Positions 24,245 through 31,482 of a stretch of 64,000 nucleotides of DNA are shown one piece after another. The position numbers and the translations under genes were made by a program. The DNA comes from an uncultured Verrucomicrobiae bacterium (GTDB lineage Bacteria > Verrucomicrobiota > Verrucomicrobiia > Limisphaerales > Palsa-1400), in the NCBI GenBank assembly GCA_963707025.1, contig CAVPOM010000011.1, positions 63,164 to 127,163 of the forward strand, given 5' to 3'. The notes under the pieces are model-generated. The model searched no databases, was not told where the DNA came from, and saw only the letters and a list, made by a program, of their open reading frames with translations. Positions within the stretch are counted from its first letter, which is position 1. Each line of letters begins with the position of its first letter.

Positions 24245-27200
24245 ATGCGCCATGCTTCGCCAGTTCGGGTCCGGACCGGAACCATCACCCTTCCCACCTG
24301 GCGGCCCGCGCCGCCGGACAAGAACCCGATGTTTCTGGAAAAACGCGTTTATCAGGGCAGCAGCGGCAGGGTGTATCCGCTGCCGTTCACCGACCGCATC
24401 GCCGAAAAACCGGTCCGCCGCAAATGGCAGGCGGTCTGGATTGAAAACGAGTTCCTCCGCGTCCTGGTGCTGCCCGAAATCGGCGGGCGCATCCACGCCA
24501 TCCAGGACAAGACCAACGGTTACGATCTGATTTACAATCAGCCCGTCATCAAGCCCGCCCTGGTCGGCCTGGCCGGGCCGTGGATTTCCGGCGGGATCGA
24601 GTTCAACTGGCCGCAGCATCATCGTCCCGCCACCTTCCTGCCCGTGGATGTTAAAATCGAATCGCACGCCGATGGCTCCAAAACCATCTGGTGCGGCGAC
24701 CACGACCCGATGTGCCGGATGAAAGGCATGCACGGCGTCTGCCTGCATCCGGGCCGGAGCTGCCTGGAATTGAAGGTGCGCGCTTACAACCGCACGCCCT
24801 TCCAGCAGACTTTTCTCTGGTGGGCCAATGTCGCCATGCGCGTGCATGAGGCCTATCAAAGCTTTTTCCCGCCGGACGTTTATTACGTGGCCGACCACGC
24901 GCAGGCGCGCCATGAGCGAATATCCGCTCTGCCAGGAATGTCTATTACGGCGTCAACTACGGCCGAGCGCGGCGCGCCGGGGCATTCCGCAAAATGAAAT
25001 TCCAAAGCAGTTCCTCCCGCCCCACTGCCGGCGGGTCGATCGCAGTCCGCATGCCCGAATACGCGCCGAACGACCTTTCCTTTTACGCCAACATTCCGGT
25101 GCCGACCTCCTACATGTGCATGGGCAGCCGGGAGGATTTCTTCGGCGGCTACGATTACGCGGCGCAGGCGGGCATCGTTCACGTCGCCAACCACCACATT
25201 TCGCCCGGCAAGAAACAATGGACCTGGGGCAATCACGAATTCGGTTACGCCTGGGACCGCAACCTGACCGAGCGCGACGGCAAAGGTGAATTCGGCGCCC
25301 TACATCGAAATCATGGCCGGCGTCTATACCGACAACCAGCCCGACTTCAGCTTTCTCCAGCCCGGCGAGACGAAAACGTGGAGCCAGTATCTGGTATCCC
25401 ATCCAAAAAATCGGCCCGGCGCAACACGCCAATCTGCAGGCGGCCGTCAGCCTGAAAATCGCAGAATCGGCCGCGCGCGCCTTGGCGTCGCTGTCACCAC
25501 GGAACATTCCGGGCGCGGCCATTGCCCTGATTTGGCAAAAGCAAACGCTGGCAAAATGCGACGGCGCGACCTGGCGCCGGGTTCGCCGTTCGTCAAGGAA
25601 GTCAGCCTTCCGCGTGGCACCGGCGAAACCGGGCTGCTGCTGCGCGTCCTGGACCGCGCCGGCCGCGAAATTATTTCTTACGCGCCGAAGCCGCGCGTCC
25701 GGGGCGCAGTGCCGCCGCCCGCGACCGAACCGGCCGCGCCGGCGGACATCGCCAGCGCGGACGAATTGTTCATCACCGGCCTGCATCTGGAACAGTATCG
25801 CCATGCCACCCGTTCCCGGTGCTATATTGGCGCGAGGCGTTGCGCCGCGACCCGGTGGATGCGCGCTGCAACAACGCCCTGGGTCTGTGGCACCTGCAGC
25901 GCGGCGAATTCACTCTGGCGGAGGAATTCTTCCGCAGAGCCATCGCGCGCCTGACGCGCCGCAATCCCAATCCTTCCGACGGCGAGGCCTTTTACAACCT
26001 GGGCTTGTGCCTGCGCCATCTGGGCCGCGATGATGAAGCTTATGGCGCGTTTTACAAAGCCACCTGGAACCAGGCGTGGATGGCGGCGGGTTATCACGCG
26101 CTGGCGGAACTGGCTTGCAAAAAATCAGACTGGGCAGGCGCGCTGGAACATCTGAACCGCTCGCTCCGTTTCAACACCGACAATCTGCGGGCGCGCAATC
26201 TGAAGGTCATGGTCTTGCGGAGGCTCGGCCGTGAAGCCGAGGCGGGTGTGCTGCTGCGCGAAACGCTCGCGCTGGACCCGCTGGACTGGTGGGCGCGGCT
26301 CTTGACGGGCGGAAATTCCCGGTTGCGATTTGCCCACGCATCTGGACCTGGCGCACGATCTGGCGCAGCGCGGGTTTTGCGCTGAGGCGGTGGCGGCTGC
26401 TGGAGGGCGCGCCCGTCCAGAGCGGCGGGTGAGTTGCCAACCAAAGTTTGGGAGCGTTGCCGCTGGTCCACTACACGCTCGGCTGGCTTCAGGAAAAACT
26501 GGGCAATAAAAAATCCGCCTTGCGGCATTTCCGCCAGGCGGCGCGCGCTCCCGCCGGATTATTGTTTTCCGTGCGCGTCTGGAAGAGATTGCGGTGTTGG
26601 AAGCGGCCATGCGGGCCAATCCGCACGACGCCCGCGCGCCTTATTATCTGGGCAATTTGTTTTACGACCGCCGCCGCCACGCCGAGGCCATCCGGCTTTG
26701 GGAGCGCAGCGCGAAATTGAATCCCGATTTCTCCATCGTCTGGCGCAACCTCGGCATCGGTTACTTCAACATTTCCAAACAACCGGCCAAAGCCCGCGCC
26801 GCTTACGAGCGCGCCTTCCGGGCCAATCCGCGCGACGCGCGGCTGCTCTTCGAGCGCGACCAGCTTTGGAAACGGCTCGGCGAAAAACCGGCGAAACGAT
26901 TGCGGGAACTGGAAAAATATGCCGCGCTCGTCCGCCAGCGCGACGATTTGACGGTGGAACTGTGCGCGCTCTCAATCAGACCGGCCGCCACGTCGAAGCG
27001 ATGCAACTCCTGGCCCAACGCCGGTTTCAGCCGTGGGAAGGCGGCGAAGGCGGGGCGCTGGGCCAGCACGTCCGCACGCAGCTTGCGCTCGGACGCGCAG
27101 GCCCTGGCACAGCAAGATTTTCCGCTGCGCCGCCAGGCCATTTTGAGAACGCGCTCGCTCGCGCCGGAAAATCTCGGCGAAGCCAGGCATCTGCTGGCCA

Positions 27201-27679
27201 ACCAGAGCGACATTCATTATTGGCTGGGCGTCGCGCTGGATTTGCTCGGCGAGCAAAAAAGGCGCGCGCAGCACTGGCTGGCCGCCGCCAACTTCAAGGG
27301 CGATTTTCAGGAGATGAGCGTCCGCGCTTTTCAGCGAAATGACCTTTTACTCGGCGCTGTGCACTGCGAAAAGCTGGGCCGGAAGCGGAGGCGAAAAAAC
27401 TTTTGCGCGACTTGCTGGCCTACGCGCAAAAGCGTTGCAAAAGTCGCCGGCCAAAATTGATTACTTCGCCACGTCGCTGCCGACCATGCTGCTGTTCGAG
27501 GATGATTTGCCATTCCGCCAGGAAACAACCGCGCTGTTTTTGCAGGCGCAGGCGCGGCTGGGCCTGGGGCAAAAAGCGAAGGCGCAGGCGCTTTTGCGGA
27601 AAGTTTTGCGGCGCGACCCGAACCACGCGCTGGCGGCGGATTTGTGGGCGGGTTGGCCCCGCGGAAGGGAGCCGCATGA
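24245..27679 (+). CDS. DUF5107 + TPR-repeat protein, broken by many indels
   Basis: 'EKRVYQGSSGRVYPLP', 'LPEIGGRIH', 'GPWISGGIEFNWPQHHRP', 'ISPGKKQWTWG', 'YIEIMAGVYTDNQPDF', then TPRs and 'IDYFATSLP'. The pieces are scattered over all three frames. Confidence 0.8.
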
Positions 27680-29102
27680 CGGCGGTGGCTCCAAAAGACG
27701 ACCCGCCTCTCAAGGCCGAATACAATTTCGGTTACATCTGGCTCATTTCCGTGACGCCGCGCTTGGGCGGGCTGTTGTTCGGCTACGACTGGGTGGTCAT
27801 TGGCGGGGCGAAGCCGTTTTTCGAGCGGTACTTTCACCTGGCCAAAGCCGCGCAATCCGGCTGGGCGAACAGTTGCGCGCTCATCGGCTGTCTGGCGGGC
27901 GCGCTCGTCGCCGGCGCGTTGAGCGACAAGTTCGGCCGGAAAAGATTGTTGATCGCTTCGGCGTTTTTGTTCGCGCGTCACCTCGCTGGGCAACGCGCTG
28001 GCGCCGAATGTTTTCCATTTTCGTCGCGTGGCGGATGCTGGGCGGCGTGGCCATCGGCCTGGCTTCGAACCTTTCGCCGATGTATATCGCCGAAATCGCC
28101 CCGGCGCGGATGCGCGGCAAACTGGTCTCCATCAACCAGCTCACCATCGTCATCGGCGTGCTGGCGGCGCAACTGATCAACTGGTCGCTCGTGCGCCATC
28201 TGCCGCCGGGCGCGACGGATGAGTTCATCGTCAATTCCTGGTATGGCCAGTCCGGCTGGCGCTGGATGTTTGCCCTCACCGCCATTCCTGCGGCGTTGTT
28301 TTTTGCCGGCATGTTTTTCGTTCCCGAAAGCCCGCGCTGGCTGGCCAAAAACGGCAAGCCCGAACAGGCCCGCGCCGTCCTGCAAAAAATCGGCGGGGCG
28401 AGCTTACGCGGGTCAGCGCCGCTCCGGGAAATCGAGGCGACGCTGGTGAACGAAACCGAAAAGGTGGATTTCCGCGAACTGCTGCAGCCGAGGATGAGAA
28501 AGGTGCTGGTGCTGGGCGTCGTGCTGGCCGTGTTCCAGCAATGGTGCGGCATCAACGTCATTTTCAATTACGCCGAGGAGATTTTCAGGGCCGCCGGCTA
28601 CGACATTTCCACCGTGCTGAAAAACATCGCCTGGACCGGCTCGGTCAACCTGGCGTTCACCTTTGTCGCGCTGGGCGTGGTGGACCGCCGCGGGCGGCGT
28701 CCGCTGATGCTGTTCGGCGCGGCGGGGCTGGCGGTCATCTACACGGCGATCGAGTTTTTGTTATCACGCGCGGCGTGCAGGGATGGCCGGTGCTGCTGCT
28801 CGTGCTGGCGGCCATCGCCTGTTATTCCATGTCGCTGGCGCCGGTGACGTGGGTGGTGATTTCGGAAATCTTTCCCGAATCGCATCCGCGGCGCGGCCAT
28901 GGCCGTCGCCGTGGCGGCGCTGTGGCTGGCCTGTTTCATCCTGACTTACACGTTCCCGATTTTGAAGGACAAGCTCGGTCCGGCGGGCACGTTCTGGCTC
29001 TACGCCGCCATCTGCGCACTGGGCCTGCTTTTCATCTGGAAGAAACTGCCCGAAACCAAGGGGCGGACGCTGGAACAGATCGAAAAGGAATTGGTGAAAT
29101 AG
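27676..29102 (+). CDS. Sugar porter family MFS transporter (XylE-like), several frameshifts
   Basis: 'LGGLLFGYDWVVI', 'SDKFGRK', 'PMYIAEIAPARMRG', 'PESPRWL', 'FQQWCGINVIFNY', 'PETKGRTLEQIE'. Confidence 0.88.
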
Positions 29103-29109
29103 GGGGCGG

Positions 29110-29280
29110 ATCTTGACACTGCTGCCGGCGTCTGGCGAAAGAATGCCATAGGAGTGCGCCCGTCCTCGGGCGCAGCCGCGTGGGAAACACGGCGCGCCGG
29201 TGATTTTCCTGAGCACCCAAACCATCCCTGGCTTGCTGCGGCCGGGGACGGCCGCACTCCGCCGGCAGCAGTGTCAAGAT
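29110..29280. repeat. MITE-like element with perfect 21-bp TIRs enclosing an inverted REP-like pair
   Basis: ATCTTGACACTGCTGCCGGCG (29110-30) is the exact reverse complement of 29260-80. The inner GGAGTGCGCCCGTCCTCGGGCGCAGC / GCTGCGGCCGGGGACGGCCGCACTCC pair matches at 23 of 26 positions. Confidence 0.85.
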
Positions 29281-29307: not shown

Positions 29308-29335
29308 TTGACATCGCCGGGGGAAGGACTAATGT
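29308..29335 (+). promoter_or_regulatory. Putative sigma70 promoter
   Basis: TTGACA-16 nt-TAATGT, 27 nt upstream of the ATG at 29363. Confidence 0.5.
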
Positions 29336-29362: not shown

Positions 29363-30868
29363 ATGAAAAAGTCACTATTTTTATGCGGAGCGCTCTTGCT
29401 GGCGGTTCCGGGTCTTTCGCCGGCAGCGGACTATCCCCTGGTATTCAAGACCCTCGATGCCCAGCAGGCCATGTCCTTTCCTTCCGGCTCCACCATTTAC
29501 GCCATGATGCAGGCCGCCAAACCGGCTGGCCTCCACAAGGCGCCGCCGGCCGTCTCCCAGCACCCGCTCTATGGCCAGATTGCGGCCGGAAGCGACCAAC
29601 TCCTGTGCCGGCTGGATGAATCCAAAGGCACCGGCCAGGGCTATGACCGGCTGATCGTGGACGTGAATCAGAATGGGGACCTGACGGACGACCCGGTGGT
29701 CAACCTGGTCCCGTCCGCCATGCATCAAGGAGTGGTCTCCGCGCCGCAGCAATTGCTCTTTGGGCCGATTCAGGCGCCGGACAATCTTAAGATTGGGGCG
29801 GATCGCCCCGTCTTTTTCGCCCAGGTTTACATGTTCATGGCAGCGGGGATCTCGGCTGCCGCCATGCCCAATGCCACCGTCGCCGAGATTCTCGTCCGGC
29901 CGGGCTGGTATTTGGAAGCCACGGTGAACGTGGATGGCAAGGAGCACAAGGTGGGCTTGGTGGACGGGAACTGCAATTTCCGCATCGGGGACCCGGAACG
30001 GCCCGTGACTTCCCGGACTGGGGTCAATGGCAGCGAAACCAGTTGGTATTTCCAGGGCGGCGACCGTTTCCTGATGGACTGGGGCCGTGCAGGAGGCATG
30101 CAAAGCTCCGTTCTGGAAGACCAATCCCGTTCCTTCGGCCCATTGCTTTATCTGGGCGCCAAGCCCTATAAAGTCGCCGTGGCCGCTGACAGCAAATCGC
30201 TGTCGCTGGCCCCCTGGACCGAGCCGCTGGCGGAGTTGGCCATGCAACCGGGCGGGGAGCACATCAGCAGCTTGGAGCTGGCTTGGGAGAAAGCCCCTGG
30301 CGACTGGGTGCTGCTGCAGCCCGGCGTCGAAAACGGCAAGGCCAAAGTGCCGCCGGGCAACTATCGGCTTTATTCCTTGGTCTTGAAAGGCAAAACCGCG
30401 GCCGGCGATTCCCTGATCATGAGCGGCATCAAGCGCGCTCCGGAAGGCACCGTCAAGGCCGTGGCCGGGGAAACCACGCCCTTGAAGTGCGGCGCGCCGC
30501 TGCAAATCAACTTGAGTTCCGTGCCCACGCGCGCTGCCGGCGGCTTGTTGCAGGGTCTCTTCGGTCAGGCCGGCCCTGCGCAGACCATCCAGGCTTCCAT
30601 CCTCGGCGCCGGAGGGGAGACCTATTCAGCCCCTCAACTGATGGGCGCCAGGGGAATGGGGCGCCCGCCGACCGGCCCGACTTACGCCGTCCTGACAACG
30701 GAAGGCAAACAGGTGGACTCGGGCAATCTGGAGTATGGCTGAGGCGGCGTTTGTTCGCACTCATGGCGAGTGCCCCAAGATTTGTCCGGCAAGAAAGTCA
30801 CCATCAAAGCCGAGTTCGATCTGAAACCGATTGACACGGTGAGCAAATCCATCGAAGTGCAGTTATAG
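29363..30868 (+). CDS. Secreted protein, candidate selenoprotein (in-frame TGA at 30740-42, motif EYG-U-GGVC)
   Basis: Signal peptide and EF-hand-like 'DVNQNGDLTDD'. After the TGA the frame stays open for 41 codons (GGVCSHSWRVPQDLSGKKVTIKAEFDLKPIDTVSKSIEVQL) to TAG at 30866-68. A hairpin follows the TGA. Confidence 0.7.
30757..30773 (+). promoter_or_regulatory. Candidate bacterial SECIS hairpin
   Basis: GCACTC-ATGGC-GAGTGC. The apical loop begins 20 nt after the UGA and contains GG. Confidence 0.5.
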
Positions 30869-31146: not shown

Positions 31147-31482
31147 CTATTTGTCGCCTTCCTCTTTTTCCTTTTCTGGTTTTTCTTGTGCCGCCTTTTC
31201 GTGCTCGACGTTTACGACGGTGCCTGCGATCGCATCCACATTGACCTCGGTGATGTCCTTTGAATCCGGGGTGGTGAAGCAAAACGACCAGATCAGTTTG
31301 CCGTGTTCCCGTTCCAGTTCGCATTCCTTGTAGGTGCCGTTCGGCACCATGGTGAGGGCGGTGGCCTGAGCCTGAGGCTTGCTGATTTTCGCCTCCGCTT
31401 CAAGCTGGGATTCATTCTCCGTGGCGCAGCCGGCGAGGAAGCCGGCGGCCAGGATCGAACAAAGAGTTAATCGCATTTTCAC
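31147..31482 (-). CDS. PepSY-domain lipoprotein
   Basis: Lipobox 'LAGC', 'ISKPQAQATAL', 'ELEREHGKLIWSF', 'EVNVDAIAGTVV'. Confidence 0.85.
   Translation of the reverse strand: MKMRLTLCSILAAGFLAGCATENESQLEAEAKISKPQAQATALTMVPNGTYKECELEREHGKLIWSFCFTTPDSKDITEVNVDAIAGTVVNVEHEKAAQEKPEKEKEEGDK

Follow-up and report, generated by a model that had tools for sequence, protein, structure and literature searches.

A predicted exported selenoprotein with a UxxxC motif in an Ig-like domain, encoded by an uncultured Verrucomicrobiae bacterium

The window, which is the whole stretch of 64,000 nucleotides that was analyzed, came from an uncultured Verrucomicrobiae bacterium. An ORF of 459 aa on its forward strand (29363-30742) ends at a TGA in the sequence SGNLEYG*GGVC. 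Past the TGA, 41 further codons follow in frame before a TAG at 30866-30868, as the earlier note had described. The same note had stated that the downstream part has no start codon of its own. A GTG at 30769 (Val of SWRVP) is possible in principle as an internal start. It would give only a 32-aa peptide that begins inside the conserved motif. The features of the locus are collected in Table 1.

Table 1. Features of the predicted selenoprotein gene in the window
Feature	Position	Strand	Remarks
Promoter-like site TTGACA-N16-TAATGT (putative)	29308..29335	+	from sequence; hexamers kept in L020 and L021
Full gene	29363..30868	+	501 aa if TGA 30740-30742 is Sec (U460); ends at TAG
Signal peptide (predicted)	29363..29428	+	residues 1 to ~22; MKK, hydrophobic 4-22, small-residue cleavage region
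N-terminal all-beta domain	29558..30217	+	residues ~66-285; conserved Asp/Asn loops; predicted fold
Asp/Asn loops of the N-terminal domain	29660-29692 (DxNxNGDLxDD)	+	also DGNxN, D234 and D276
Middle beta domain	30218..30490	+	residues ~286-376; secondary structure of AlphaFold model
C-terminal Ig/FnIII/macroglobulin-like beta-sandwich with Sec site	30491..30865	+	AlphaFold model, fold searches
In-frame TGA, predicted selenocysteine U460	30740..30742	+	within E-Y/F-G-U-G-G-x-C-x-x-S-W-R
Cys464, likely partner cysteine (UxxxC)	30752..30754	+	alignments A1, A3
SECIS-like hairpin	30757..30773	+	6-bp stem; AUGGC loop, or R-C pair closing a UGG triloop

A promoter had also been proposed for the gene. 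Both hexamers, TTGACA (29308) and TAATGT, were kept in the orthologous loci L020 and L021, where the spacer was 16 or 17 nt long and different in sequence. On the other hand, a consensus promoter scan called 0 sites at TTGACA-N16-TAATGT. The proposed signal peptide was seen as a hydrophobic segment at residues 4-22 of the gene product, from which export is predicted. The DxNxNGD loop, a putative calcium-binding site, was present as DVNQNGD at residues 100-106; among 103 aligned rows, 89-102 keep D100, N102, N104, D106 and D109.

The gene stands alone, far from the CxxU and 4Fe-4S genes described below. Its neighbors are a sugar transporter gene on one side and, on the other, a small gene for a PepSY-type predicted lipoprotein (31147-31482, reverse strand), which is convergent with it. 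Upstream of the promoter-like site lies a palindromic element of ~110 bases (29150-29262), the reverse-strand translation of which matched at least eight places on other contigs. The element is suggestive of a dispersed REP- or MITE-like repeat.

Split genes occurred at several places in this assembly (window 24245-28847; G000:C12:65-69 kb; G000:C6:405.5-406.3 kb; G000:C17:175.1 kb). The frame-shifted genes were a TPR-rich gene, the sugar transporter gene, selA, selB, selD, the EF-Tu gene and one paralogue of the gene under study, all of which are intact in relatives. The splits are probably assembly indels. In such an indel-prone assembly one TGA codon alone proves little, and these breaks favor reading it as an ordinary stop, a sequencing error, a nonsense mutation, or a Trp or Gly codon under a changed code. 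Contigs of four DNA runs, covering pieces of the region, contained no listed difference within the TGA; this is weak evidence, to which no weight was given.

Comparison of homologous DNA contradicted such a reading. Five paralogues in the same genome, found by tblastn and a motif scan, all have TGA at this column, followed by S-W-R-x-P. Among 61 related genomes, the family was found in 11, which were identical by single-sequence and by profile search. TGA was contained in 33 of the 34 matches in these 11 relatives. The remaining one stopped before the site at a contig end, and one of the 34 also held a TAG. In a sample of 300 phylum genomes (at least 90% complete, 15 candidates scored per genome), the family was present in nine, with 13 matches and one TGA in each. 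A metagenome pattern that was codon-neutral at this column, accepting TGA, TGC, TGT or TGG, gave TGA in 131 of the 131 matches listed, which represent at least 130 loci. Coding sequence was conserved beyond the TGA as well.

The protein homologues mostly ended at the site. For the gene in the window, 115 of the 120 homologues listed end at EYG or EFG, and for one paralogue the number was 116 of the 120 listed. A profile of the domain scored with 840 representatives (50% identity). Among the best 150 of these, 108 stopped at the site, 38 read through, and the other four were unrelated repeats or had no local alignment. Hundreds of database proteins thus appear to be annotated short, often without the whole membrane domain described below.

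The 38 read-through homologues had Cys at the Sec column in five cases and a non-Cys residue (Gly, Ser, Leu, Trp, Arg, Pro and others) in 33. These residues count in favor of an ordinary stop or error. Gene callers may have produced some of the Trp and Gly by translating TGA with a different code. Since 33 of the 38 have a non-Cys residue, the Sec site appears, judged by the alignment, to be dispensable in some paralogues. The earlier note had expected TGA or Cys at this column and conservation past it, and both were seen, with TGA in all homologous DNA examined and Cys in five proteins. Its warning that another residue would speak against Sec applies to the read-through proteins, but not to the DNA.

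Cys464 was invariant in alignments A1 and A3, both of which were picked with a motif that includes this Cys. The +4 Cys is absent in two Sec members, L087 and L088. In non-Sec homologues its column often holds Tyr, His or Phe, as expected of a semi-buried structural position. Motif variants in other families of the phylum (L087, L088 and L091-L093) have either UGG without the +4 Cys, or UGFSC with a different hairpin sequence.

In the last 102 residues, the two closest named relatives are 85% and 79% identical to the protein in the window; their records are titled Verrucomicrobiota bacterium. A single-sequence contig search gave two true orthologues and two spurious N-terminal-word matches in Acidobacteria; a profile search of the two Acidobacteria genomes did not find the family. 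Membership in Planctomycetota was taken from ESM Atlas taxa and two named records.

The hairpin GCACTC-ATGGC-GAGTGC was found as proposed, with its loop 20 nt after the UGA. The folding energy was -9.3 kcal/mol for 30750-30790. These values and the 6-bp stem are within the limits of the bSECIS model, which the accessible text of PMC13188914 gives as a stem of 4-16 bp and a loop of 3-9 nt, located 16-37 nt after the UGA, at -7.5 kcal/mol or lower. By itself, the hairpin was not more stable than shuffled sequences (z = +0.33, +0.27, +0.76 and -0.46 for four stretches), as might be the case with an ordinary stop. The single-sequence stability being unremarkable, comparative support was needed, and conservation and covariation raised the hairpin above chance. 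The six pairs held in 100% of the cells in 28 aligned sequences and 99.6% in 75 sequences, with 19 and 40 two-sided changes in the stem, respectively. The covariation score was reached by 0 of 500 shuffles, and slid controls dropped to 22-67%. The hairpin thus covaries in homologues, as the earlier note had predicted.

The codons in the hairpin gave further results. Across the stem, His-Val, Tyr-Val, Leu-Glu, Arg-Ala and Asn-Val were seen as reverse-complementary codon pairs. The Ser codon was TCA or TCG in all of 77 distinct metagenome hairpins (77/77), compared with 30% upstream, and the Arg codon was CGA in 70, compared with 11% upstream. The free third position was G in 76 of the 77. We interpreted these sequence patterns to mean that the hairpin is under RNA selection, with the protein following the RNA.

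Among 115 distinct metagenome hairpins, 58 have G-C at positions 21 and 25 after the UGA, and 53 have A.C, as does the gene in the window. This suggested a UGG triloop with G as the second nucleotide, closed by the 21-25 pair, which would fit the consensus model of PMC13188914. A caveat had been raised that the G of the loop is not in the first two positions. This is true of a 5-nt AUGGC loop, but the G fits if positions 21 and 25 pair. The caveat would be largely answered by such pairing, for which the G-C in 58 of the 115 hairpins and the same loop in the CxxU gene speak.

The same hairpin geometry was present in two other gene families, represented by the C-U gene of G033 and the CxxU gene. 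When hairpins were scanned for loosely over the whole genome, 2091 of 67558 TGA were picked, mostly noise. A tighter scan gave 29 matches, compared with 22-44 for control triplets of similar frequency, and the credible ones were family members and the CxxU gene only. The family itself was missed by a codon-model scan for read-through, which was therefore uninformative on other selenoproteins.

The Sec machinery, for which the earlier note had suggested a search, was present in this genome. The selA-selB-selD genes lie on contig C12, and tRNA-Sec lies on C17, ~310 bases downstream of one paralogue. SelD has a Cys motif in this genome and no internal stop in four relatives. The same SelD (L062:14779-16368, reverse strand; G000:C12:68.3-69.9 kb) is extended at the N-terminus by a Cys-rich part, in which CxC and CPC occur several times, and has a CMD/AhpD-like domain at the C-terminus. 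At G000:C2:106.5-112.2 kb, C8:72.5-81.8 kb and C4:150.8-153.8 kb, tRNA genes form arrays of 10, 11 and 5, respectively. TGA ends 1507 of the 2594 long coding-like ORFs of this genome and is its commonest stop, which excludes a changed genetic code.

The family also followed the Sec machinery in other genomes. Eight of the 11 family genomes among the relatives had selA. The three without a selA hit (78%, 64% and 91% complete) each had a tRNA-Sec above the Rfam cut-off. The 91% complete one, G036, contained selB, selD, tRNA-Sec and two family genes, and no selA match with two models. In the phylum sample, selA was found in 17 of the 300 genomes, and all nine family genomes were among these 17. 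None of the 283 selA-negative genomes contained the family, which argues against an ordinary stop or error. The nominal p of 5e-13 for this co-occurrence is overstated, since related genomes do not count as independent. Four genomes had a family gene on the same contig as selA at a distance of 20 kb or less, and in one it was directly downstream. Fdh-alpha matches in 20 family genomes had no internal stop (0/20).

From these comparisons, the TGA near the end of the gene is very likely read as selenocysteine. For binding of the hairpin by SelB and insertion of Sec at codon 460, we estimate a probability of about 0.95.

AlphaFold models were built with Cys in place of Sec. The whole chain was all-beta, with a mean pLDDT of 90.2 and a pTM of 0.86; the pLDDT of the last 127 residues was 86.5. 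The predicted position of the Sec was in a turn between strands 450-455 and 463-469. Strands 463-469, 478-484 and 492-500 of the predicted sandwich are encoded after the UGA. Read-through is thus predicted to complete a seven-stranded beta-sandwich, and the product stopped at the UGA would be an incomplete domain. The loss of three strands on truncation is another argument against an ordinary stop.

Fold searches with the C-terminal domain gave tied hits with Z of 10.4-10.1 and rmsd of 1.9-3.3 over 77-101 residues: MtrC domain I (10.4), OST48 (10.3), MG domains (10.3-10.1) and an IL-6 receptor domain (10.1). Foldseek found nothing at E 0.001 for this domain, and only weak partial Ig-type matches (TM 0.15) for the whole model. 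The predicted beta-sandwich agrees with the Ig-like, non-thioredoxin domain proposed previously. A thioredoxin-fold selenoprotein was rejected on the basis of this model, the lack of a Pfam thioredoxin match, and a motif that is UxxxC, not UxxC or CxxU. No match passed in Pfam and NCBIfam for the protein and 28 domain members. A sequence search of solved structures gave two matches at E 1.2, which were dismissed as chance.

Family members came in different forms. Soluble ones have ~41 residues after the U, and membrane-fused ones have ~280, with six or seven predicted helices of no known family. Some members carry other tails after the Sec domain. Long forms with 230-590 residues after the Sec domain were seen in L033, L108, L150 and L171; we take these tails to resemble F5/8-type and LamG-type domains. 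There were two to five paralogues per genome, with soluble and membrane-fused forms in tandem, and some phylum genomes showed a single copy. Searches of the ESM Atlas with the protein and with the membrane domain returned hypothetical clusters only, and a plasmid comparison gave no match.

The N-terminal domain connected the family to redoxins. Its profile matched 21 of the 61 relatives. Outside the Sec family, 12 loci were examined. Exported proteins with a C-terminal redoxin domain (WCGPC or WCPPC) were found in 10 genomes, one of which holds a second, frame-shifted copy. The remaining non-Sec match among these loci was the C-U gene of G033. By profile search, nine of the 10 redoxin-form genomes lack the Sec family; G004 has both. 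In two Cys homologues, P0142 and P0156, a CxxxC Ig domain is placed before a redoxin domain. In a search for remote homologues of this domain, close members of the family took up the list.

One paralogue cluster contains tRNA-Sec, a CxxU protein gene and the gene for a Fer4_5 membrane protein, the CxxU gene lying between the other two. The CxxU protein (G000:C17:179554; L046:621, reverse strand; also in L058, L060, L064 and L070) is small and predicted to be membrane-anchored. In five of these genomes it ends with C-P-T-UGA and two codons. A 6-7 bp hairpin lies beyond the stop codon, in non-coding sequence; in its kind of loop and its distance from the UGA it agrees with that of the family. 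An exported 1100-residue protein with CarboxypepD_reg repeats is encoded after the short paralogue at L059:8023-11328, L064:9173-12469 and L060:4198-7650, and is missing at that place in G000. Its C-terminus presumably resembles a redoxin domain without CxxC, as seen by eye; there was no such Pfam match.

The C-U gene of G033 (L251:1369-2256, contig C78) lies between selA and selB and has the N-terminal domain common to the Sec family. Its R-C-UGA-G and the hairpin were confirmed at this one locus. The C-terminal part did not score on the C-terminal profile of the family. Because 65 of the 69 homologues listed end in RC, this sister is likely, on sequence grounds, a second uncatalogued Sec family. 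One homologue was fused to a peroxiredoxin-type domain. The sister family was found in one of the 61 relatives, and was absent from the 300-genome phylum sample except for partial N-terminal matches in one genome.

We propose the following mechanism. Hundreds of homologues conserve the UGA, the hairpin and the frame beyond it, and these are restricted to genomes that have the Sec machinery. SelB-dependent read-through would produce a 501-residue, predicted-exported selenoprotein. The read-through would complete the sandwich, with the Sec in the turn of a beta-hairpin and a conserved Cys four residues further on. Sec460 would attack oxidized substrates (disulfides, peroxides, or oxidized envelope proteins that the N-terminal domain with its Asp/Asn loops would present), and Cys464 would resolve it. 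It would then be re-reduced from the membrane. The small CxxU protein with its predicted membrane anchor and the 4Fe-4S membrane protein, the genes of which adjoin paralogues and tRNA-Sec, are plausible intermediates. The Sec domain would take the place held by the CxxC TlpA/redoxin domain in relatives.

The redoxin swaps, the Cys homologues fused to redoxins, the C-U family and the CxxU/Fer4_5 neighbors favor a selenol/thiol oxidoreductase. Against a redox role are the 33 of 38 non-Cys residues at the column, the missing +4 Cys in L087 and L088, the UxxxC motif, which is not that of thioredoxin, the presence of both forms in G004, and the neighbors of the gene in the window, which give no hint. 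On balance, we give slightly better than even odds to an extracytoplasmic selenol/thiol oxidoreductase that is re-reduced from the membrane. More tentatively, and with the odds against it, one may envisage a selenium-based redox relay in the envelope of uncultured Verrucomicrobiota and Planctomycetota. In such a relay the 4Fe-4S protein and the CxxU anchor would feed Ig-fold selenoproteins that replace the TlpA domain, Cys forms would almost never be found, and the relay would be the main reason why the Sec machinery is kept by these bacteria, in which no Sec-formate dehydrogenase was seen.

Sec may be inserted for another purpose. An exposed selenolate might capture soft metals, metalloids or electrophiles (Hg, Cu, As, organometals), with the Cys as a second ligand. 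In the model a lone Sec is exposed on a loop and the fold is of a binding type, the partner Cys is variable (+4, -1 in the sister family, or absent), and the accessible part of PMC13188914 catalogues Ig-fold and CU/UxxU selenoproteins with metal links. The clusters examined, however, contained no metal-resistance or metal-transport genes, and the domain swaps and fusions indicate redoxins. We consider metal capture unlikely. A little less likely still is that the Sec cross-links subunits by diselenide or selenylsulfide bonds, tethering soluble paralogues to membrane-fused ones or to each other in an envelope complex. Selenium shortage would then cause termination at the UGA and yield truncated chains in which the last strands or the membrane domain are missing. 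The two to five paralogues per genome, with soluble and membrane-fused forms in tandem, and the many residues tolerated at the column in some paralogues would agree with cross-linking, but the single copy in some phylum genomes does not, and the redoxin swaps would be left unexplained. An ordinary stop, an error or a changed code, to which the indels, the unremarkable hairpin stability and the non-Cys residues lend something, is very improbable in view of the conserved TGA and downstream coding sequence, the stop codon usage, the restriction to selA-positive genomes and the truncated sandwich.

To selenoenzyme chemistry, the family would contribute a UxxxC motif and a scaffold that lies outside the cytoplasm and is not a thioredoxin. 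The family would also define a lineage-type SECIS loop, RUGGC at +20, which already flags two further gene families. It would explain the Sec machinery in genomes where no Sec-FdhA was found (0 of 20 family genomes) and, in those examined, SelD has no UGA. As Cys versions are rare, searches based on Cys/Sec pairs would tend to miss it.

The earlier note had placed the protein outside the classical selenoprotein families. This agrees with the absence of a passing family model and with the 119-family table of 2026 (PMC13188914), where the accessible motif column contains no UxxxC or E-Y/F-G-U-G-G-x-C. The accessible text of that paper does not mention Verrucomicrobia or Planctomycetes. The parts available of the deep-Sep paper (PMC12013277), PMC1976440, PMC4807772 and BSepDB (PMC13326102) contain no description of the family, and a literature search for 'UxxxC' with 'selenocysteine' found none. 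This is apparently an uncatalogued bacterial selenoprotein family, with known decoding in a new context of fold and motif, as far as the accessible parts of these sources go.

In decoding, the family resembles the bacterial SelB/bSECIS selenoproteins: an in-frame UGA, a 6-bp stem, a loop 20-21 nt downstream, selA/selB/selC/selD in the genome and the existence of Cys homologues. It differs from them in having no passing NCBIfam model, rare Cys homologues and the RUGGC loop. The predicted fold is similar (Z ~10) to those of the alpha-2-macroglobulin MG domains (bacterial and human), MtrC domain I and the OST48 Ig-like domain. With MG domains the likeness is of fold only, at 5-12% identity and tied scores, with no Pfam MG match and no other macroglobulin domains. 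The predicted OS_HP2/DUF1573 selenoprotein (NCBIfam NF041425, Pfam PF07610), in the accessible text of PMC1976440, likewise has Sec in an Ig-like domain with a Gly-/Cys-rich turn, and its motif is UGC (from CGC), compared with UGGxC here. Identity with OS_HP2 was rejected: the best score was 12 bits against a cut-off of 100, for one of 28 members and none for the protein in the window, and the profile-profile probability was 0.2%. The exported TlpA/ResA-type redoxins (AhpC-TSA PF00578, Redoxin PF08534) share with the family the N-terminal DxNxNGDLxDD domain, the predicted export and reactive chalcogen residues in the C-terminal domain. In contrast to these redoxins, the protein in the window has an extra middle beta domain, and a UxxxC in a beta-sandwich instead of a CxxC in a thioredoxin fold.
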